A stretch of DNA of 64,000 nucleotides from Candidatus Omnitrophota bacterium (GCA_028716565.1 JAQUPL010000008.1:13067-77066); one strand, 5' to 3'. Counted from the first letter of the stretch, positions 51,355 through 62,679 are shown. Notes: generated from the sequence alone by a model not told the origin. Program-made: numbers and translations.

Positions 51355-52698
51355 CTATATTCTCCCCTTGATGATTTTGATTATTCTCAATAACATCCCC
51401 GTAAGACTCTTCCTTCTCGGATGGTATTCAGGATAAAGCTCTTCGATAACCTTCCCCGTTTCCACTTCTATGGATGAGGATTTCTTTACAGCGAGGACTT
51501 GGGACGGGTAAACACTTCTATGGCCGGTCATCAGAAAGCTTATAATACACCCTAGAGTGGCGTAAGGAGCTACGGTGGGCCCAAAGAGTTCGACCGCCAT
51601 AATACTTGCCGCTATAGGCGTATTAGCTGCCCCCGCTAATAGGCTGACCATGCCGATCGCGGCGAAAGTCGCTACATCAAGGCCTAAGAATTTCGCAAAT
51701 ACCACCCCTGCTGCCGAACCGACAAAAAATATCGGCGTAACTATGCCGCCGCTTCCGCCAAAATTAAGCGTAACGCTTGTGAAAATTATCTTTAATATAA
51801 ACGCGTACCAGATAATATTCACCCCTTGCAGGCAGGATTGGATTGTATCCAAGCCGAGGCCGAGATATTGTTTCGAAAATATCAGCGCCAGGACTACAAT
51901 GGCAAAACCGCCGATAAGACCTTTTAACGGCTTCCATACCCTGACCTTATTCGAAAGCTTTTCGGCTAATTTCAATATCTCTATCATGAACGCGGCGCAT
52001 AAGCCGAAAAAGATTCCGGATAAGACTACTTTAATAAAAAATGCGTTGCTGAAGATGGGAATGAGATTTATCTGGCCATGAAAATAAGTTATTCCAAGGG
52101 ACGAGGAAACGTGGTAGCTGATTATTCCTGCTATAAAAGAGGGCAAAAGGACGTCATATAATATACTGCCTACAAAAAGCACTTCGACGCCGAATATAGC
52201 GCCGGCTATGGGTGTGCCAAAAACCGAAGCGAAACCGGCGCTTATGCCGCATATGACCAGTTTTCTCCTGTCTTTGTCGTCAAATCTAAAAATATCCGCG
52301 GCAACGGAGGAAAGCCCGCCTCCTATTTGAGCGCACGGTCCTTCCTTCCCCGCCGAGCCCCCTGCCGCTATAGTAATGATCGTCGTGATAAGCTTGACGG
52401 GGATGACCGCTGCTTTTATCTTTCCTGCGTGCTTATGTACAGCTTCGATAACCTTCTCTGTCCCATGGCCTTCGGCGTCAGGCGCCAGATATTTGATCAT
52501 TAGGGCACTTAAAAACAACGCGAGTGGCAGTATAAGGAAATAATAGTTATACTTCCCGCTAAATGCCGTGCTCCAGTTCAGCATCTTCAAAAACAGGGTC
52601 GTAGACAAGCCGACAATGATCCCTATGAATGTCGCAAGGACGACCCATTTTATGATACTGATAAAAAGGACTGTTTCTTCCGCTAATCTTCTTCTCAA
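51355..52698 (-). CDS. ClC-family chloride channel / H+:Cl- antiporter
   Basis: GSGIP-like, GKEGP and GxFxP-type selectivity motifs. 447 aa with about 10-12 helices. TTG start. Confidence 0.8.
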   Translation of the reverse strand: MRRRLAEETVLFISIIKWVVLATFIGIIVGLSTTLFLKMLNWSTAFSGKYNYYFLILPLALFLSALMIKYLAPDAEGHGTEKVIEAVHKHAGKIKAAVIPVKLITTIITIAAGGSAGKEGPCAQIGGGLSSVAADIFRFDDKDRRKLVICGISAGFASVFGTPIAGAIFGVEVLFVGSILYDVLLPSFIAGIISYHVSSSLGITYFHGQINLIPIFSNAFFIKVVLSGIFFGLCAAFMIEILKLAEKLSNKVRVWKPLKGLIGGFAIVVLALIFSKQYLGLGLDTIQSCLQGVNIIWYAFILKIIFTSVTLNFGGSGGIVTPIFFVGSAAGVVFAKFLGLDVATFAAIGMVSLLAGAANTPIAASIMAVELFGPTVAPYATLGCIISFLMTGHRSVYPSQVLAVKKSSSIEVETGKVIEELYPEYHPRRKSLTGMLLRIIKIIKGRI

Positions 52699-54084: not shown

Positions 54085-54399
54085 TCATCTTCTTTTCTTA
54101 ATAATCTCGCAACAGCCGCCTTCAATGCTTATGGTTTTAATATTCACTAATCCATCAGCTATCTTTCTATGAGCCGAAGTGACAATGCGAGAAAACGTGG
54201 GCCTGGAAATCTTCATTAATTTTGCAGCATCGACCTGCTTCAATCCTTCAAGGCAGGCCAGGCGCACGGCCTCAAACTCATCGAGCGTCAAATAAACGCC
54301 TTCCAGTTTATTTAAGGGTTTACAGAGCGGCTTAAAGCACCTTTCACCCGGAACACATTTTACCCATCTGGTTTTCTTAGGCCTCAAAATAGTCTCCAA
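54085..54399 (-). CDS. DUF134 (UPF0251) family predicted DNA-binding protein, paralog A
   Basis: Shared motifs with the ORF at 62383-62679 (LDE.E..RL.DLEGL.Q..AA..M.ISR.TF..IV.SAHKKIAD.L). TTG start. A start 12 nt downstream with SD GGAGA is also possible. Confidence 0.6.
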   Translation of the reverse strand: METILRPKKTRWVKCVPGERCFKPLCKPLNKLEGVYLTLDEFEAVRLACLEGLKQVDAAKLMKISRPTFSRIVTSAHRKIADGLVNIKTISIEGGCCEIIKKRR

Positions 54400-54402
54400 T
54401 TA

Positions 54403-54451
54403 TTATGAACATATGTTCATAATAATTTTAACATATTATTTTATTTCGTCA
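54403..54451 (-). promoter_or_regulatory. promoter (TTGACG-16-TAAAAT) with 18-bp perfect palindrome TATGAACATATGTTCATA (54404-54421) over the transcription start of the DUF134-permease-trx operon
   Basis: -35 at 54451..54446, -10 at 54429..54424. The palindrome core ATGAAC....GTTCAT matches the TetR operators at 29791 and 30517. Confidence 0.55.
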
Positions 54452-54507: not shown

Positions 54508-55842
54508 CTAGAAATCAAAGCTTGCCTCGAACCCCAGGACCAGGGCATTGTCGACATCGCTTTTGCCGTCGGGATTAATTATATACTGTATATCGGGGGT
54601 GACGTAACACCACGGCCCCAGTTGGAACCTGTGGTCCAGTTCAAGGATCATTTCGTCGGTCTGGCCTTCCAGTTTGTCGCTGAAATGGCCGAGGATGAAA
54701 CAGAAAGCCGTGACATCGCGGTTGCGGTTGGGCGGCAGCCCCTGATAAACAAGGCCTGTGGCTATCTGATAGGTTTGCGGGTTTATGTCATCCTGCGGGG
54801 CCAGCATGCCGGCGCCCCATACCGTGAGCCCTTTAGGCCTGTCAAGCGGCAGGGCCGTCATCTGCGGGTCATGCGGTTTTTTGAGGCTCTCTGACATCTT
54901 CGCGCCCGATCTCAGATGGGACGGGCCTTCATATTCAGGCCACTCGCCTTTGTATATCATCTTGTCCGCCACGAGATAAAATCCGTAATTGCCGTGATTC
55001 CGGATATCAGGATTTGAGAGGTATGTAAAGCTGCTTGACTCATAGTAGCTTCCGAACGATATCCCCCCGGGAGTTATCAGGCCCTCCCTCTCCTGCCCAT
55101 GCCTGTAAGTTATCTGTCCGACGGTAAGATAGCCCTTATCCGTCCTCAAGCTGAAATCAGCTCCGTTTTTATTGGGTTCCGCTACGCTCGGGTCCGCGTC
55201 ATATAAACCGGTGATAACGCTCCAGTCTTTGTTTGGCTGGAAAGTGGCCCTTGTGCCCCATGCGGCAGTGCGATAATGCGGGAAAAAGATGTCGGAAGGG
55301 ATAGCACCCAACCTTCCGTCGACCGCGCTCGTCAGGTAATATTTGAACATCGGCGAGACGGCAAGGATATCTCCGGCAAAAATGCGGCCGGCCTCCAGGT
55401 TGAAAGTATCGTCAAGCACCGACTTCGAAAGTTTGAGCTCGCCGAAGTAGTAGTCGCCGGACGTAAATACCTGCTGCGGGCTGTAGAAAGACCCTATAGG
55501 GACCGTTATATCCCGGCCGCTCGCCAGGAAGTTGCTTACTTTAAGCGACAATCCCTGTATGGAAGCTATCTTCTCGAAATCCAGCACGGCAGCAAGCGAA
55601 ACAAATCCGGAATAATCCGTGGTCTGTTTGAGCCCGCCCGAAGGGTTACCTCCTGTATCCGTGGTGTAGTTCGAGGAAACGCTTATTCCGGATCTTTCTA
55701 GTGAATCGCGAAGGCCTCCCCAATTGCCCGTAGCGGTTTTTTGCGACAACCAGCCGTCGAGCGCCGAAGCGTTTGCGGCGGTTGCCGAAAGGACAAGCAA
55801 CAGTAAGATAACTGCCGCCGCTACTTTTTTATCCGGGATCAC
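54508..55842 (-). CDS. outer membrane porin (OprB-like carbohydrate/substrate-selective porin family)
   Basis: Signal peptide. 444 aa, beta-rich with a C-terminal Phe. Confidence 0.45.
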   Translation of the reverse strand: MIPDKKVAAAVILLLLVLSATAANASALDGWLSQKTATGNWGGLRDSLERSGISVSSNYTTDTGGNPSGGLKQTTDYSGFVSLAAVLDFEKIASIQGLSLKVSNFLASGRDITVPIGSFYSPQQVFTSGDYYFGELKLSKSVLDDTFNLEAGRIFAGDILAVSPMFKYYLTSAVDGRLGAIPSDIFFPHYRTAAWGTRATFQPNKDWSVITGLYDADPSVAEPNKNGADFSLRTDKGYLTVGQITYRHGQEREGLITPGGISFGSYYESSSFTYLSNPDIRNHGNYGFYLVADKMIYKGEWPEYEGPSHLRSGAKMSESLKKPHDPQMTALPLDRPKGLTVWGAGMLAPQDDINPQTYQIATGLVYQGLPPNRNRDVTAFCFILGHFSDKLEGQTDEMILELDHRFQLGPWCYVTPDIQYIINPDGKSDVDNALVLGFEASFDF

Positions 55843-56930
55843 CGTTTGAAATATCCCTTGATCTTAGATACGTCGCCTTTTTCTTTCGCGATCGCGAGCA
55901 TTAAAAGCAGCCGCGCCTTCGCGCCGGTAAGGTCGCCGCCTAATATGGCGCCGTCTTTTTCCATTGTCGCGCCACCGCCCTGGTCCCCGTACATCGGCCA
56001 GACGCCGCTGTGATATACGCTCGTGGTTATGACGACGGGTATGCCTTTTGCCATCGCGTATTTGACGGCTTCATAAACTTTCTCGTTGACATTGCCCGCG
56101 CCGACAGCATCCACCACTATCCCCTTTGAGCCGTGGTCCGCCGCGAAACGCACGAACGAGCCGTCATCGCCGGCAAACGTGCTTAAGAAAGCTACATCCG
56201 GCAATTTATCAGGAAGGGGAAGTTTTTGTTTTGCCGGGGCGACATTATAACGGATGACCTTTCCCATCACTATATAGCCGAGATAGCCCTTCTCTCCGGA
56301 ATCGAAAGTCTGGACATTTGTCGAATTGGTCTTTACCACGTTCCTCGCGGAATTTACATACTGATTAAGGGTAATGGTAACGCCCCAATCTTGCGCTTCT
56401 TTCGAGCATACCTGCGTCACGGCATTGAGTATGTTCGCAGGACCGTCGGGAGAAACGTCGGATGCGTCGCGCATAGCGCCGACAAATGCTACCGGTTTAT
56501 TGCTCTTCAACGTAAGTTCGAGGAAGTACGCCCCCTCGGCCATAGTGTCGGTGCCGTGAGTTACTACCGCTCCCTTGACCTTCGGGTCCGCGAGATGTGC
56601 GTCGACGGTCTTCGAAAGCTGGGCCCAGATCTCGGGCGTCATCTGGGAGCTGTCTATATTGCAGAGGTTGACCACTTCTATATTGGCGACCTTGCCAAGG
56701 CCGGGAACTGCAGCGATGAGGTCTTTGCCTGATACCGCGGGCACAGCGCCGCCGGTCTTCGTGTCTGTCTTTTCAGCTATAGTGCCGCCTGTAGTGACGA
56801 TCACCACCGTCGGCAATTCCGCGTGGCAACGCGCGGCAAAAACCGCCAAAACCGCGATGCAGCAGATCGAAATCGCCGCGTATCTCGCCGTCTTCATGGT
56901 TCCTCCTTTTGTATGCGTCGCCTCGTTCAC
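55839..56930 (-). CDS. ansB: periplasmic type II L-asparaginase
   Basis: Signal peptide. TGGTIAE (catalytic Thr), HGTDTM and further type II asparaginase motifs. Overlaps the porin start by 4 nt. Confidence 0.85.
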   Translation of the reverse strand: MNEATHTKGGTMKTARYAAISICCIAVLAVFAARCHAELPTVVIVTTGGTIAEKTDTKTGGAVPAVSGKDLIAAVPGLGKVANIEVVNLCNIDSSQMTPEIWAQLSKTVDAHLADPKVKGAVVTHGTDTMAEGAYFLELTLKSNKPVAFVGAMRDASDVSPDGPANILNAVTQVCSKEAQDWGVTITLNQYVNSARNVVKTNSTNVQTFDSGEKGYLGYIVMGKVIRYNVAPAKQKLPLPDKLPDVAFLSTFAGDDGSFVRFAADHGSKGIVVDAVGAGNVNEKVYEAVKYAMAKGIPVVITTSVYHSGVWPMYGDQGGGATMEKDGAILGGDLTGAKARLLLMLAIAKEKGDVSKIKGYFKR

Positions 56931-58612
56931 ATCAGGTTTACGATAAGCGTCCCCCAGACTGTCAGGAGGACGTTCGCAAATGCATAAGGGGCTGCATATC
57001 CCAATACGGCCAATGGGCTGCCGGACGCTTCGATGACCACGTTAAGCGAGGCGGTACAGTTATGCGAACCTGTCGCCGCGCCTAATAACAATATCGGATT
57101 CACCTTCAGGACCTTCAGCCCTAAAATCATTACCACGATGATAGGCAGGGTCGTTACAGCGATACCTCCCATGAAAACCGAAAGGCCTGTTGTCTTGATC
57201 GCCTGCAGCGCCTGCGGCCCGGCAGCGACTCCCACACAGGCCACGAAAAGATTCAACCCAAGATCCCCAAGTATCCACTGCGCGCCGCCGGGGATCTGCC
57301 CGAAGGTGGGATGCAGCGACCTGAGCCACCCGCATAAAAGCCCGGCGACAAGGACGCCGCCGCCCGTGCCCAGCGTGATCGGAATGCCTAATATAGGAAC
57401 GACTATAAGCCCTATGAGGGTACCTACTATACAGCCGACAGCCACGGTGACCAGGTCCGTCACGGTAGTAGGCCGCTCGGGGTATCCCAGGAACGCGATA
57501 GTCTTTTCGACATCTTCTTTCGCGCCGGTGATCTGCAGTATATCGCACTTATGCACAACCGTCCCAGGCATGATGGGCAGTTCATGGCCCTGCCTTATAG
57601 CCTTACGCAGGAATACCCCGTGCGCAAGCTTTAATTTTCCGAGCTCCCCCAGCGTTTTGCCCGCTACATTCTTATTCAGGACACAGACATCTATGACCTC
57701 GCCGGTCACGTCGATTACAGTCGCGCGGTCGACTTCCGGCCCTATAAGGTCCCCGGCATTTACCAAACGGGCTGTCGGGCCCATCACCAGCAAAGTATCA
57801 TCGCGCGAGATGACTGTCTCCGGAGTGCTCTCAATGGCCTGGCCGCCTCTCATTATCTTATCTATCGCCGCTCTATTAGGTAAAAGAGACTCGACCTGGG
57901 AAATGCTCTTGCCCACTACCGCTCCGTTCAGGGCCCTGTAAGCCCTCATATCGAGCCGCTGCGTCCACGAGAAAGTCCCCTGGTTCTCCTCATCGGAGCC
58001 GGAACCGCCCATCTGTTCTTCCAGTTTTTTTGCTTCAGCCTTAAGGTCTATCTTGAACAGGACAGGCGCCAATTTAACGAGGACTATCGTACCGGCGGTG
58101 CCGAATATATACGTGATCGCGTATGCGATCGCCATATTGGAATCGAGCGCGTTCTTTTCGTCCGGCGTTACATCGAGGCGTTTGACGGCATCGCCTCCCG
58201 TACCCAGGGCTGCCGAGGTCGTCATCGAACCGGCGAACATGCCCGCGGTAGTGCCCTTGTCAAAATGGGCGGCCTTACCGATGAAGATCGCCGTCGCCAA
58301 CGATGTTATAGCCACTGCGATCGTCAGCCAAAGATAATTCATGCCGTCCTTCTTGAGCGAGCCGAAGAACTGGGGCCCGACCTTGTAACCTACGGTAAAT
58401 ATGAACAGCGCGAAGCTTATGCTCTTCAGGATCGGCGGGATCGTTATGCCGACCTGGCCGACCACGATGGCAGCCAGCAGGATCGAGGCGGTCGAGCCGA
58501 GGGTGAAACCGAAGATTTTGAGCCTCTTTCCCGCAAAATATCCGATGGCAAGCGCCAGGAAGAGCACCAGTTCGGGATTGTTACGCATCGTCTCCAGGAT
58601 ATCATGCACCAT
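56927..58612 (-). CDS. AAE-family (AspT/YidE/YbjL) aspartate:alanine-type exchanger with central tandem TrkA-C (RCK_C) domains
   Basis: Duplicated 5-6 TM halves separated by two RCK_C-like cytoplasmic domains. 561 aa. Overlaps ansB by 4 nt. Confidence 0.8.
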   Translation of the reverse strand: MVHDILETMRNNPELVLFLALAIGYFAGKRLKIFGFTLGSTASILLAAIVVGQVGITIPPILKSISFALFIFTVGYKVGPQFFGSLKKDGMNYLWLTIAVAITSLATAIFIGKAAHFDKGTTAGMFAGSMTTSAALGTGGDAVKRLDVTPDEKNALDSNMAIAYAITYIFGTAGTIVLVKLAPVLFKIDLKAEAKKLEEQMGGSGSDEENQGTFSWTQRLDMRAYRALNGAVVGKSISQVESLLPNRAAIDKIMRGGQAIESTPETVISRDDTLLVMGPTARLVNAGDLIGPEVDRATVIDVTGEVIDVCVLNKNVAGKTLGELGKLKLAHGVFLRKAIRQGHELPIMPGTVVHKCDILQITGAKEDVEKTIAFLGYPERPTTVTDLVTVAVGCIVGTLIGLIVVPILGIPITLGTGGGVLVAGLLCGWLRSLHPTFGQIPGGAQWILGDLGLNLFVACVGVAAGPQALQAIKTTGLSVFMGGIAVTTLPIIVVMILGLKVLKVNPILLLGAATGSHNCTASLNVVIEASGSPLAVLGYAAPYAFANVLLTVWGTLIVNLM

Positions 58613-58621
58613 GCAGGCCTC

Positions 58622-60211
58622 CTACTTTTTGGATTCTTTCCACGTATTGTAATAATCCTCGAGCAGTTCGCTTATGCCTTTGCCGATCTCCGTATAGGCG
58701 CTGTCGTCGAGATTGGCCAGCGACACCCTGATCGACATGTTCGGCGCATCGAAACCGCCGCCGTCCATAAGGACTATCGACTTTTCGTCCGCCAGCCTCC
58801 AAACGAAGTCTATCGGCTCAAAATTCTTGACCAGATAGTCCGCGAAATCCGCGTTATAGCGCGTCTTGGCGAGCTCCGGTATATCGATAGTCGCGTAGTA
58901 ACGGGCGTCGTATTCATCATCCGGGGCTTTTACTCCGACGGCGGAGTAGAGGGCCTCGAAGCGCTTCTTGACGATATCCTGCGCCATCTTCTTGTAATCG
59001 CCCTTCTTGTCCATGAGGCAGTGCAGCGAAAACATCACCATCATCACCTGCTGCGGCGTCGAAAGCCCGGCGGTATGGTGCAGCGCTACCGAACGCGAAT
59101 CGGCGACCATCCGGTCGATCAGTTTCATGTGGTCCGGGCCGAGCTCGACGGTGCAATAACGGGCGTGCAGCTCTTCCTTGTCGTCCGGCGGCAGGGCCGC
59201 TATGCGCTTATCGAAGACATTATCCTCGTGTATGCCTATTACGCCGAGGCGCCATCCGGTCGCCCCGAAATACTTGGAAAAAGAATACACGAGGACCGTG
59301 TTGCGCGGGGCTGCGGCGGCAAGCGACTTGAAACCGTTGACGAACGTGCCGTACACGTCATCGGTAAGTATTATGAGGTCTTTCCTGCGCGTCTCAACCA
59401 ACTCCGTTATCTTATCGAGCGACTTCTGCTGGATGCTGACCGATGTGGGATTGGAGGGATTAACAAGGAAGAACGCCTTGACGGCGGGGTCGGCCAGTTT
59501 TTCAAGCTCCGAGTCCGGATACTGCCAGTCCGAATTCTCGTCCTGTTTCACCTCCAGCTCGATGAGTTCATAGTCGTTGAGCCTGGGTATTTCCAGGTAA
59601 GGCGTGAATATCGGCGTACCGATCGCGATCTTGTCGCCCTTATGTATCAGTTTATTTTCCGACAGGCTCGTAAAGATATAATCCATCGCAGCGGTGCCGC
59701 CTTCCGTGGCGAAGAGGTCGAATTTCCCTATCGGCGCGAGGCCGAACATCTCCTGCTCAAGATATTTGTGCACTATCTTTTCGCAGATCTCGAGCATCCT
59801 GTCGGGCGTGGGATAATGGTCGCCGAGGACGGCGTCCACCATCTCGTTTAAGAAATCATCGCCATCTATCTTCATGACCACGCAGACATAGTCAAATGCC
59901 TGGGCCAGGAACGCGGCGCCGGGCGCGCCGGAATTCTTGGCGAGATAATCCTTGAACCTTTTGGATAGCCCTTCCTTCTGCGCGACCGTCCCAAGGCCGG
60001 GCCTGTGGGGAGAGCGCTGGGATTCTGACAAGGCGAACATGCCGAACTGCAGGAAAGCTTCCCTCGGCGCTATGGCGACCCAGTTCGGGTTGCCCCTTCC
60101 GGCATTCAGCATGATCTTCTCGCGGCGCGTCTCGGCCATGCTGATCAGCTTATTCTTCAGTTCAAACGGGCTCAGGGCTTCATAACCTTTTTCTTCTTCC
60201 GAACGCTGCAT
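58622..60211 (-). CDS. aspD: L-aspartate 4-(beta)-decarboxylase (PLP fold type I, AspD/AsdA)
   Basis: 529 aa aminotransferase-fold protein of the characteristic AsdA length with N-terminal motif NAGRGNPNW. It is adjacent to an AspT-type exchanger, as in the aspD-aspT operons of Tetragenococcus and Pseudomonas. Confidence 0.75.
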   Translation of the reverse strand: MQRSEEEKGYEALSPFELKNKLISMAETRREKIMLNAGRGNPNWVAIAPREAFLQFGMFALSESQRSPHRPGLGTVAQKEGLSKRFKDYLAKNSGAPGAAFLAQAFDYVCVVMKIDGDDFLNEMVDAVLGDHYPTPDRMLEICEKIVHKYLEQEMFGLAPIGKFDLFATEGGTAAMDYIFTSLSENKLIHKGDKIAIGTPIFTPYLEIPRLNDYELIELEVKQDENSDWQYPDSELEKLADPAVKAFFLVNPSNPTSVSIQQKSLDKITELVETRRKDLIILTDDVYGTFVNGFKSLAAAAPRNTVLVYSFSKYFGATGWRLGVIGIHEDNVFDKRIAALPPDDKEELHARYCTVELGPDHMKLIDRMVADSRSVALHHTAGLSTPQQVMMVMFSLHCLMDKKGDYKKMAQDIVKKRFEALYSAVGVKAPDDEYDARYYATIDIPELAKTRYNADFADYLVKNFEPIDFVWRLADEKSIVLMDGGGFDAPNMSIRVSLANLDDSAYTEIGKGISELLEDYYNTWKESKK

Positions 60212-60228: not shown

Positions 60229-60255
60229 TAAAAAAGCGGCCCGTTTCCGAGCCGC
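60229..60255 (-). terminator. strong intrinsic terminator (GCGGCUCG-GAAA-CGGGCCGC followed by U6) 18 nt upstream of the aspD start codon
   Basis: 8-bp stem with a GNRA tetraloop at 60236..60255, and an A6 run on the plus strand at 60230..60235. Confidence 0.6.
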
Positions 60256-60256
60256 C

Positions 60257-60289
60257 TTAAAATTTATACTTCTTTTTTATCCCCTCCAT
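60257..60289 (-). CDS. 10-aa leader peptide MEGIKKKYKF (candidate attenuation leader)
   Basis: ATG at 60289 preceded by GAGAGGAAG. The UAA stop lies 1 nt before the terminator stem. Confidence 0.35.
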   Translation of the reverse strand: MEGIKKKYKF

Positions 60290-60315: not shown

Positions 60316-60344
60316 AATATATCTTAAACGTAGAAAATTGTCAA
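60316..60344 (-). promoter_or_regulatory. sigma70-type promoter for the aspD leader (TTGACA-17-TATATT)
   Basis: -35 at 60344..60339, -10 at 60321..60316. Confidence 0.5.
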
Positions 60345-60491: not shown

Positions 60492-60803
60492 TTACGCCCC
60501 TGCATACTTTGCTCTCTTACGCTTTCTTGCAGCTACTGCTACCATTACCCCCCATATTAGGAAAATGGACAGGGTCATCGGAACGCCAACCCTCAACATT
60601 TCCGGGAAGACTTCGGTAAGGCCAGCGGTCAGGAATGGCGGATAAAGAACAATTTCTCCGTGGGAGATATGTTCGACTGCTAACATTACCACTCCTCCCC
60701 ACAACATCGAATTTAACCAATTGAAATGGTATTTTTCACTAGCTTTTTTCCCTACAGTAGTTGTCACTATTGCCGCGGCCGCTGGGACAAGAAAACAAGC
60801 CAT
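60492..60803 (-). CDS. small integral membrane protein (103 aa, 3 TM), paralog of the next gene
   Basis: Shared pattern with 60807-61085 (..LWGG.VM.L.EHI.HGE..), hydrophobic helices and a basic C-terminus. Confidence 0.4.
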   Translation of the reverse strand: MACFLVPAAAAIVTTTVGKKASEKYHFNWLNSMLWGGVVMLAVEHISHGEIVLYPPFLTAGLTEVFPEMLRVGVPMTLSIFLIWGVMVAVAARKRKRAKYAGA

Positions 60804-60806
60804 CGG

Positions 60807-61085
60807 TTACCTCCTTTTTAAGTTTGAGATTAGAAGTAAAATTCCCCAGGTCATAAACACAGGCGCCAACATTGCTATTCCTAACATAACACCATTTTTG
60901 ATCATTCCGTCTGTAGTCTTCTCCAAAAACGCTCCGCCTTCATATCCTAATATATGGTCGGTAAGAATCATTGCTGCCGCTCCCCAGAGCATTAAAGCTA
61001 GAAAACCTAACTTGTAATCCTTGGGTAAAACAAACTTACCTAAAGTCGCGCCCGCTGCCGCGATAGAAGTCGTTACTAACCACAT
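60807..61085 (-). CDS. small integral membrane protein (92 aa, 3 TM), paralog
   Basis: See above. It is preceded by the full-length repeat element carrying a promoter. Confidence 0.4.
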   Translation of the reverse strand: MWLVTTSIAAAGATLGKFVLPKDYKLGFLALMLWGAAAMILTDHILGYEGGAFLEKTTDGMIKNGVMLGIAMLAPVFMTWGILLLISNLKRR

Positions 61086-62382: not shown

Positions 62383-62679
62383 TTAACCAACCTTCTTTAC
62401 GGAGCCGCCTTCAATCTTTAGCGCCTTGCCGTTCAAAAGGGCATCCGCAATCTTTTTATGCGCTGAATTAACGATATTGCCGAAAGTTTGGCGCGAGATG
62501 TCCATCTTTTTCGCGGCGTCCTCCTGATATAGTCCCTCTAAATCCGCGAGCCTGACCGACTCTAATTCATCCAGAGCAAGATTCACCTCTTCAAGCATAT
62601 CCAAAGGGATGCCGCGGGGTTTGAAGTAATTCGTATCCGGGCTGCATCTTATTCTTCTGCATCTACATGGCCTAGGCAT
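62383..62679 (-). CDS. DUF134 (UPF0251) family predicted DNA-binding protein, paralog B
   Basis: Cys-rich N-terminus (CRCRRIRC) plus the conserved DUF134 core. It abuts the methyltransferase start. Confidence 0.6.
   Translation of the reverse strand: MPRPCRCRRIRCSPDTNYFKPRGIPLDMLEEVNLALDELESVRLADLEGLYQEDAAKKMDISRQTFGNIVNSAHKKIADALLNGKALKIEGGSVKKVG

Follow-up and report, generated by a model that had tools for sequence, protein, structure and literature searches.

Cycles of decarboxylation and precursor/product antiport are the simplest known route to a proton-motive force, and most of what is known of them comes from Gram-positive bacteria or from work that considered the inner membrane alone. 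How such a cycle might be arranged in a cell with two membranes is the question raised by a locus in the DNA of a Candidatus Omnitrophota bacterium (GCA_028716565.1, JAQUPL010000008.1:13067-77066; the 64,000-nucleotide stretch that was analysed is called the window here). Four genes in the window were originally predicted to encode an aspartate 4-decarboxylase (AspD), an AspT-type exchanger, a type II secreted L-asparaginase and an outer-membrane porin, with the last two extending an aspartate-based pathway to external asparagine. We examined the identity of each gene, the signals ahead of the first and the recurrence of the arrangement in other genomes.

Gene content and organization

The four open reading frames lie closely packed on the minus strand (Table 1), and their existence and identities are borne out by Pfam and NCBIfam. 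The predicted 4-nt overlaps are found at only one of the three junctions, where the asparaginase stop codon and the GTG start of the porin gene share the sequence GTGA; the aspD/aspT junction is a 9-nt gap with an AGGAGG ribosome-binding site, and the aspT/asparaginase junction is a gap of 29 nt. The latter is counted from the ATG at 56897, which is almost certainly the asparaginase start because GGAGG lies 5 nt upstream of it and the NCBI call for a sister genome uses the same start. That genome (GCA_028711645.1, also a Candidatus Omnitrophota MAG) comes from a near-identical strain, differing from the window by 28 SNPs over 15.4 kb. The GTG start at 56930 merely opens the longest open reading frame (55839-56930) and was rejected. 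A gene for a ClC channel lies 1.8 kb downstream of the cluster, a neighbour that is not kept in a related locus (L002).

Table 1. Predicted genes and leader elements of the locus, in window coordinates
Feature	Coordinates	Strand	Remarks
aspD (asdA), PLP-dependent L-aspartate 4-decarboxylase	58622..60211	-	529 aa
aspT, aspartate:alanine antiporter, AAEx family (TC 2.A.81)	56927..58612	-	561 aa
Secreted class-1 (type II-like) L-asparaginase	55839..56897	-	352 aa from ATG 56897
OprB-family outer-membrane porin	54508..55842	-	444 aa
Sigma-70-type promoter-like site, TTGACA-17-TATATT	60316..60344	-	11/12 consensus bases; best match in the region
Candidate short upstream ORF, MEGIKKKYKF	60257..60289	-	Read from sequence; stop codon abuts the hairpin
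Terminator-like hairpin and U-run, candidate attenuator	60230..60258	-	Between promoter and aspD ribosome-binding site

The decarboxylase and the antiporter

We identify the product of the first gene as an aspartate 4-decarboxylase, predicted to convert L-aspartate to L-alanine. It scores 778 bits against NF006755 (cut-off 321) and 732 bits against TIGR03801 (cut-off 435), with the next-best NCBIfam family at 89 bits, and it aligns with the solved AspD structures 3fdd and 2zy2 at about 525 bits. Ordinary aminotransferases, the alternative assignment, reach about 50 bits and were set aside. The catalytic residues are kept: across 127 homologues, the window protein among them, K17, R37, Y134, K315 and R497 show little or no variation. 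K313 (the PLP-binding lysine, K315 in 3fdd), R39, Y133 and R495 of the window protein correspond to K315, R37, Y134 and R497 of that structure, and these four do not vary at all in the set. R487, which is mutated in 2zy5, does not define the family, since glycine stands there in the window protein and in 89 of the 127 homologues.

The second protein has the Pfam layout of its family, two Asp-Al_Ex transmembrane halves around a central pair of TrkA_C (RCK_C) stretches, and its gene adjoins aspD in 54/64 species-level loci. It passes the cut-off of the equivalog model TIGR03802 by just 32 bits (579.4 against 546.95). A place in the YidE/YbjL subfamily was also considered and rejected, as NF003440/PRK04972 (316 bits; cut-off 645) and PRK03818, a "putative transporter" model (214 bits; cut-off 449), which we read as the YbjL- and YidE-type models, both fall far below their cut-offs. 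The match to the Tetragenococcus halophilus AspT structure 8xw5 is 203 bits, and the aspartate-binding residues of that protein are T130, S132, Y167, L431, T496 and S498 (PMC12462496). Four of these six pocket residues are kept in the window protein (T131, S133, Y168 and L453, corresponding to the first four); N518 and T520 occupy the T496 and S498 positions, both of which are variable among 96 aspD-linked homologues. As judged from its sequence, the protein is an AspT-type Asp:Ala antiporter, with predicted electrogenic exchange of Asp(1-) for Ala(0).

The asparaginase and the porin

The original description of the third protein as a type II secreted L-asparaginase stands in its domains, its catalytic residues and its export signal, and requires revision in its subfamily. 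Pfam finds the N- and C-terminal asparaginase domains within 55839-56930 at 197 and 97 bits, and the best solved relative is Campylobacter jejuni AnsB (3nxk, 213 bits). The catalytic residues T12, T89, D90 and K162 are kept, and the TGGT, HGTDT and KT motifs align with those of the C. jejuni and Erwinia AnsB enzymes. A Sec-type signal peptide, judged by eye, is present as MKTARYAAISICCIAVLAVFAARCHA, with a basic n-region, a 17-residue hydrophobic core and C-H-A ahead of ELPTVV; in the alignment, the latter segment falls on the N-terminal residues that are visible in the crystal structure of Erwinia AnsB. Against the type II subfamily model TIGR00520 the protein scores 281 bits, under the cut-off of 314, and for this reason we place it in a divergent clade of predicted class-1 asparaginases rather than with canonical AnsB. 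The whole clade lacks the lid-loop Tyr25 (Gly stands there) and has a lid shorter by 2-3 residues, and it is marked by the motifs TGGTIAE[KR] and AMR[DN]AS and by a YGDxGGG insertion. Tyr25 is present in only 48% of type II asparaginase orthologues (PMC9500103).

The fourth protein agrees with its description as an outer-membrane porin. It matches Pfam OprB (PF04966) at 147 bits over profile positions 1-372 of 372, and its AlphaFold model (pLDDT 89.7) has as its best PDB match Pseudomonas putida OprB (4gey; TM 0.78/0.82, E 9e-36). By eye, it begins with a Sec-type signal peptide ending in ANA before SALDG, and it ends in a C-terminal Phe. Relatives at 48-55% identity adjoin decarboxylase/antiporter pairs of the AdiA type (Arg), the Gad type (Glu) and the pyruvoyl-HDC type (His). 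Outside the Asp systems, 3/5 sampled relatives lie beside such pairs and 2/5 have unrelated neighbours with no decarboxylase beside them. Since the porin clade accompanies pairs of the Arg, Glu and His types and also aspD-aspT pairs without an asparaginase, specificity for asparagine is improbable. The gene neighbourhood favours amino acids or amines over carbohydrate as the permeating molecules; given the two relatives that have no decarboxylase neighbour, the protein may also be a general porin.

A conserved leader with a terminator-like hairpin

The promoter-like site upstream of aspD is the probable starting point of expression, and the hairpin in the leader of approximately 95 nt that follows probably tunes it. 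Promoter, short leader and hairpin are conserved ahead of aspD in seven related loci; in five loci (L002, L128, L089, L090 and L116) the counterpart of the promoter-like site, TTGACT-17-TATACT or TATAAT, lies equally far upstream. The hairpin (11 pairs, 7 of them G-C) is the strongest terminator-like site in our scan and the only consensus structure in the seven related leaders, where it has 12 pairs, 4 of them with compensatory changes; the folding z-score of the leader is -3.2 relative to shuffled sequences. This suggests control of aspD by transcription attenuation. A short open reading frame occurs at the same place in related leaders, with neither the sequence nor the length of its peptide conserved. 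No antiterminator alternative structure was found in the consensus fold of the seven leaders, and an Rfam search of the leader gave no family match.

Recurrence of the four-gene arrangement

An asparaginase gene lies beside aspD-aspT in 11 of the 48 species-level loci with enough flanking sequence, from Omnitrophota, Planctomycetota, Desulfobacterota, Bacteroidota and Burkholderiales, and all of the linked asparaginases that we examined carry signal peptides. Two asparaginase clades fill this slot, canonical AnsB with the lid tyrosine being the one found in Bacteroidota and Burkholderiales. Where a porin gene comes next, its product belongs, in different phyla, to one of three unrelated families: OprB, Porin_O_P (in Chitinophaga and Parapedobacter) or a DcaP-like porin (in L049). 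The complete four-gene cluster is present with different flanks in L002, L006, L091, L116 and L128 and in part in L024, and the same design occurs in cultured Bacteroidota (Parapedobacter tibetensis, L073). In a woesearchaeote, AspD and the same asparaginase clade as in the window are found beside a different antiporter. AspD-AspT is very common in Omnitrophota among the closest database matches; the majority of aspD-aspT loci, however, carry no asparaginase and no porin. This repeated and independent linkage, with two asparaginase clades and three porin families, supports the view that the asparaginase and porin would extend the pathway.

Proposed pathway and alternative explanations

We consider it reasonably probable that the four genes form a single operon whose products run a cycle of asparagine/aspartate decarboxylation, from the outside of a diderm cell inward. 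The OprB-type porin would admit asparagine and aspartate to the periplasm, where the Sec-exported asparaginase would hydrolyse asparagine to aspartate and ammonium. AspT would then take in aspartate(1-) from the periplasm and release alanine(0) from the cytoplasm in exchange, carrying one net negative charge inward, and AspD would convert the aspartate to alanine and CO2 with consumption of a cytoplasmic proton; alanine, CO2 and ammonium would leave, again by way of the porin. The predicted net result is a membrane potential and a pH gradient that could be used for ATP synthesis or for relief of acid stress. For AspD-AspT itself, this mechanism of generating a proton-motive force has been stated, and it drives ATP synthesis in T. 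halophilus (PMC12462496).

It is worth considering what else these genes might do. The purpose of the same pathway might be to resist acid or keep pH constant, not to conserve energy: cytoplasmic protons would be consumed and periplasmic ammonia would buffer the envelope, in the manner of the E. coli Gad, Adi and glutaminase systems. Relatives of the porin stand beside AdiA-type and Gad-type systems, which are classic acid-resistance modules, and ClC, which supports decarboxylase-based acid resistance in E. coli, has a counterpart just downstream of the cluster. We nonetheless think this assignment of role rather unlikely: the sole characterised AspD-AspT system is described as generating proton-motive force and ATP, the ClC neighbour is not kept in L002, and the two roles are in any case not mutually exclusive. 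A question of a different kind is whether the asparaginase-like protein is some other periplasmic amidohydrolase (a glutaminase, for example, or a hydrolase of some other aspartyl amide) that would still supply aspartate or a related substrate. The missing Tyr25, the shorter lid, the clade-specific motifs with their insertion and the score under the TIGR00520 cut-off all lean that way, yet the four catalytic residues are kept, Tyr25 is often missing from type II orthologues, and the same genomic slot holds canonical AnsB in other phyla, so that we regard such an activity as improbable.

More radically, the porin, and perhaps the asparaginase with it, could be neighbours that have no functional tie to AspD-AspT, the one serving the lineage as a general diffusion channel and the other as an enzyme for scavenging nitrogen or carbon. 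In favour of this explanation, both genes are missing from most aspD-aspT loci, two of the five sampled porin relatives keep unrelated company and OprB is nominally a carbohydrate porin. However, the four genes remain together while their flanks change, the asparaginase and porin genes overlap by 4 nt, members of three porin families and two asparaginase clades recur at the same position, and the other three sampled porin relatives lie beside decarboxylase/antiporter pairs of other kinds. Weighing these points, we find chance adjacency very improbable, and the reading that we prefer continues to be a single operon for an asparagine/aspartate decarboxylation cycle that begins outside the cell.

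Beyond this locus, a broader proposal can be advanced tentatively, as one that is possible but doubtful. An OprB-fold porin clade of Omnitrophota and neighbouring phyla might be a dedicated outer-membrane part of Asp, Arg, Glu and His decarboxylation/antiport cycles, the Asp version being extended by a Tyr-less subfamily of periplasmic asparaginases and a new leader attenuator, with the Bacteroidota having built the same four-part design independently from Porin_O_P and canonical AnsB. If this is true, the proton-motive decarboxylation cycles of diderms would be three-compartment machines with an outer-membrane channel of their own. More generally, our observations suggest that diderms repeatedly add two accessories to such cycles: a periplasmic amidase, which widens the fuel from aspartate to asparagine as well, and a co-encoded outer-membrane channel for a high flux of precursor and product. 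In the Omnitrophota, an uncultured group in which small genomes are frequent, AspD-AspT may contribute notably to membrane energy or to the control of pH. The occurrence of the design in the cultured P. tibetensis makes the idea testable, and the clade of secreted asparaginases without the lid tyrosine is possibly of interest to enzymologists.

Comparison with known systems

The AspD-AspT core is a known system, and the added asparaginase and porin, which recur in many lineages, appear to be undescribed. The porin belongs to the same Pfam family as the carbohydrate-selective OprB of P. putida (4gey) and shares its predicted β-barrel (TM 0.78-0.82), although the identity is only 21% and the context of the window protein is amino-acid decarboxylation and antiport rather than sugar uptake. 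With the T. halophilus system (TC 2.A.81; PMC12462496), the locus shares the enzyme and transporter families, the adjacency of their genes, most of the Asp-pocket residues and the inferred electrogenic precursor/product exchange leading to a proton-motive force. It differs in its diderm host, in the added secreted asparaginase and outer-membrane porin, in the leader with a terminator-like hairpin before aspD and in the antiporter itself, which is about 30% identical to that of T. halophilus (a figure estimated from the alignment, not computed) and departs from it at two hairpin-2 positions.

For those C. jejuni strains in which AnsB has a secretion signal, it is established that deamidation takes place in the periplasm and that the aspartate is then taken up (PMC4178425). 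AnsB of strain 81-176 is a Sec-exported class-1 asparaginase that makes periplasmic aspartate for uptake, as is predicted for the window enzyme. In C. jejuni, however, the aspartate is taken up by Dcu/DctA/Peb transporters and passed to aspartase and fumarate respiration, not to a decarboxylase/antiporter cycle. The genes do not form a single operon, no porin is dedicated to the pathway, and it is the window enzyme, not that of C. jejuni, that is without the lid tyrosine. The glutamine-dependent acid resistance of E. coli likewise places an amidase ahead of a decarboxylase/antiporter cycle, with the amide made usable and ammonia released. There, the glutaminase YbaS is cytoplasmic, GadC imports glutamine, GadB is the decarboxylase and no dedicated porin is known to take part, whereas here a periplasmic location is predicted for the amidase, and the antiporter is from another family.

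Predicted four-gene operon and source strain

The stretch 54508-60211 consists of four consecutive open reading frames, all on the minus strand, whose Pfam and NCBIfam identities confirm the originally predicted set of aspartate 4-decarboxylase (AspD), aspartate-alanine exchanger (AspT), asparaginase and porin, with one small correction when the junctions are re-read. The genes had been described as joined by 4-nt overlaps; this holds at the asparaginase/porin junction only, where the porin GTG start overlaps the asparaginase stop as GTGA. A 9-nt spacer with AGGAGG inside it separates aspD from aspT. The asparaginase start is placed at ATG 56897, which has a strong GGAGG 5 nt upstream and is also the start in the NCBI gene call for the sister genome, and therefore 29 nt lie between aspT and the asparaginase gene.

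Features of the operon and its leader
Feature	Coordinates	Strand	Remarks
aspD, 529 aa	58622-60211	-	NF006755 and TIGR03801 above cut-off
aspT, 561 aa	56927-58612	-	two Asp-Al_Ex halves, two TrkA_C stretches, TIGR03802
Asparaginase	55839-56930 (longest ORF); start ATG 56897	-	both asparaginase domains
OprB-family porin	54508-55842	-	whole OprB profile, 147 bits
Promoter-like site, TTGACA-17-TATATT	60344-60316	-	upstream of aspD
Terminator-like hairpin, then U-run	60258-60233	-	strongest such site of the region

AspD is identical to that of GCA_028711645.1, a Candidatus Omnitrophota MAG, and the two contigs differ by 28 SNPs over 15.4 kb, 20 of them packed into a stretch of some 170 bp in the asparaginase gene (56232-56397); the window thus represents a sister strain. 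The cluster, which accounts for most of the 8 amino-acid changes in the asparaginase, might reflect either a recombination tract or a hot spot of diversity. A 100%-identical asparaginase is on record in another Omnitrophota assembly. Exact-match look-ups of the AspD protein and of this asparaginase gave no entry, and the genomic context was read from the sister genome. The G+C content of the operon is 55.1%, against 43-46% in the immediate flanks; the idea of a horizontally acquired island was nonetheless dropped because values of 55-56% occur in other 4-kb stretches of the window and operon-sized (5.7-kb) windows range from 45 to 55.5%.

Identity of the decarboxylase and the antiporter

Pfam assigns the aspD product to a generic aminotransferase fold only. 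The protein scores 778 bits against NF006755, the model for bifunctional aspartate transaminase/aspartate 4-decarboxylase with a cut-off of 321, and 732 bits against TIGR03801 (cut-off 435), with 89 bits for the next family. Its residues 9-524 align at about 525 bits with the solved AspD structures 3fdd and 2zy2-2zy5, whereas the scores of ordinary aminotransferases lie around 50 bits. When 127 homologues taken from the fetched loci are aligned (3fdd numbering), the invariant residues include R37, Y134, the PLP lysine K315, R497, N256 and Y287; K17 occurs in 121 sequences and D285 in 126, and the window enzyme carries all eight. Scores and active-site residues alike place it with the decarboxylases rather than with ordinary aminotransferases. 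R487, which is altered in the 2zy5 mutant, was considered as an AspD-specific marker and discarded because most homologues (89/127), like the window enzyme, have Gly at this position.

AspT exceeds the cut-off of TIGR03802 (aspartate-alanine antiporter) by a modest margin, at 579.4 bits against 546.95, and stays below those of NF003440/PRK04972 (316 bits; cut-off 645) and PRK03818 (214 bits; cut-off 449), which we take to be the YbjL-type and YidE-type models, respectively. Against the solved AspT of T. halophilus it scores 203 bits. The paper describing that structure names six aspartate-contacting residues (PMC12462496), and four of them (T130, S132, Y167 and L431, T. halophilus numbering) are retained in the window and invariant or nearly so among 96 aspD-linked AspT homologues. 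The window protein differs in having Asn at the T496 position and Thr at the S498 position, both of which vary across these homologues. The equivalog score, modest as its margin is, taken together with the four retained pocket residues, argues that the transporter is of the AspT type and does not belong with YidE/YbjL. Residue 132 is Thr at the Q131 position and residue 518 is the Asn at the T496 position, each found in 12 of the 96 homologues; Thr132 and Asn518 may represent a shift in specificity.

A putatively secreted asparaginase and a porin

The closest solved relatives of the asparaginase are tetrameric class-1 enzymes, C. jejuni AnsB first at 213 bits, and the TGGT (nucleophile), HGTDT and KT lysine motifs are present. 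Compared with EcAII, it has Gly in place of Tyr25 and a flexible lid shorter by 2-3 residues, features common to the whole subfamily to which it belongs (clade A), which is further marked by TGGTIAE[KR], AMR[DN]AS and a YGDxGGG insertion. Its score against the type II subfamily model is 281 bits, below the cut-off of 314. Because only 48% of type II orthologues have Tyr25 according to a survey of bacterial asparaginases (PMC9500103), the missing Tyr weakens the type II assignment without excluding it. The N-terminus, MKTARYAAISICCIAVLAVFAARCHA, reads as a Sec signal, and ELPTVV, the predicted mature end, lines up with the N-terminal residues seen in the crystal structure of Erwinia AnsB; the AlphaFold model has a pLDDT of 84.5.

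The porin has a signal peptide and a C-terminal Phe. AlphaFold, given 48 homologues as input, predicts a confident barrel (pLDDT 89.7), and the best PDB match of this model is P. putida OprB (TM 0.78/0.82, identity 21%). About 100 database proteins, mostly from Omnitrophota, are at least 45% identical to it. Among five relatives examined outside AspD contexts, three adjoin other decarboxylase/antiporter pairs. In Auribacterota the pair consists of an arginine decarboxylase of the AdiA type (1264 bits) and a basic amino acid/polyamine antiporter; in the second case a GadC-like permease accompanies a glutamate decarboxylase (663 bits), and in the third a GadC/TyrP-like permease accompanies a pyruvoyl histidine-decarboxylase-like protein. 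The neighbours of the other two are unrelated. Hence a channel that carries amino acids and amines, and that such cycles recruit, is a better reading of the porin than a pore specific for asparagine.

Recurrence of the gene linkage

An AspD alignment search with one genome per species kept 80 loci, and a metagenome scan added 60. Where the flanks suffice, aspT adjoins aspD in 54 of 64 species-level loci and an asparaginase does so in 11 of 48. All 11 linked asparaginases have predicted signal peptides. Clade A accounts for seven of them, from Omnitrophota, Planctomycetota and Desulfobacterota; the other four retain the lid Tyr, are of the canonical AnsB type and come from Chitinophaga, Parapedobacter tibetensis, a Burkholderiales MAG and an unclassified MAG. 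Five fetched loci (L002, L006, L091, L116 and L128) repeat the complete aspD-aspT-asparaginase-OprB cluster and a sixth (L024) repeats part of it, with different genes on the flanks. The gene next after the asparaginase encodes a Porin_O_P porin in two Bacteroidota and a DcaP-like porin in locus L049; in three more loci (L010, L102 and L014) an OprB porin lies just upstream of aspD-aspT, without an asparaginase. The same layout is thus reached convergently with two clades of asparaginase and three unrelated families of porin.

Several variants were also seen. In a Woesearchaeote (DPANN archaeon; L086, 4919-9017), consecutive genes encode a GadC-like APC permease, AspD (704 bits) and an asparaginase of clade A, the same chemistry as in the window but with another antiporter family and no outer membrane. 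In a Burkholderiales MAG (L079, 9605-12580), a second AAEx-family transporter (561 aa) follows the asparaginase beside aspT-aspD. Two betaproteobacterial aspD loci without aspT (L051, 6715-7971; L052, 6681-7973) each encode, just upstream, a roughly 420-aa secreted protein that ends in Phe and has a weak, sub-threshold Porin_O_P match.

Leader and genomic neighbourhood

The terminator-like hairpin lies between the promoter-like site and the aspD ribosome-binding site, a layout shared by seven loci. It is the only consensus structure of the seven leaders, with compensatory changes in 4 of 12 pairs, and this consensus contains no antiterminator. A short ORF, conserved in neither sequence nor length, ends at the hairpin foot in the window and its two closest relatives. 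A known RNA element was rejected, as Rfam gave nothing relevant at E<=1. We regard the leader as a candidate attenuator.

Directly upstream of the operon promoter lie two small membrane ORFs (60492-60803 and 60807-61085, minus strand; 103 and 92 aa), apparently paralogous and with no Pfam match on record; a hairpin follows the first, and both are missing at the equivalent position in L002. DUF134 genes (54085-54399 and 62383-62679, both minus strand) stand on either side of the operon, each first in a small metal or redox module, one with an ArsP permease and Thioredoxin_3 and the other with a methyltransferase and a Nitro_FeMo-Co protein; two similar units thus flank the operon. A perfect 26-nt palindrome, TTATTATGAACATATGTTCATAATAA (54400-54425, minus strand), which closely follows a promoter-like site (54452-54425) and closely precedes a DUF134 gene, resembles the operator of a dimeric regulator. 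Downstream of the porin gene, at a distance of 1.8 kb, is a ClC-type channel gene (51355-52698, minus strand). In E. coli, ClC aids acid-resistance systems that rely on decarboxylases; the gene was rejected as a component here because it is not conserved beside the operon in L002.

Proposed cycle and known systems

Homology and the recurrent, convergent gene linkage support the proposed asparagine/aspartate decarboxylation-antiport cycle. Asparagine and aspartate would enter through the porin, the periplasmic asparaginase would yield aspartate and ammonium, AspT would exchange Asp(1-) for Ala(0), and AspD would make alanine and CO2 with the consumption of one proton. The benefit may be energy or acid protection; either may hold. 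The literature searched, with incomplete coverage, held no earlier description of an aspD-aspT-asparaginase(-porin) cluster, which is weak evidence of novelty, nor of such a system in Omnitrophota. C. jejuni strains with secreted AnsB offer a precedent for the periplasmic asparaginase step (PMC4178425). For the last two steps the known counterpart is T. halophilus, in which AspT exchange and AspD decarboxylation together generate a proton-motive force.
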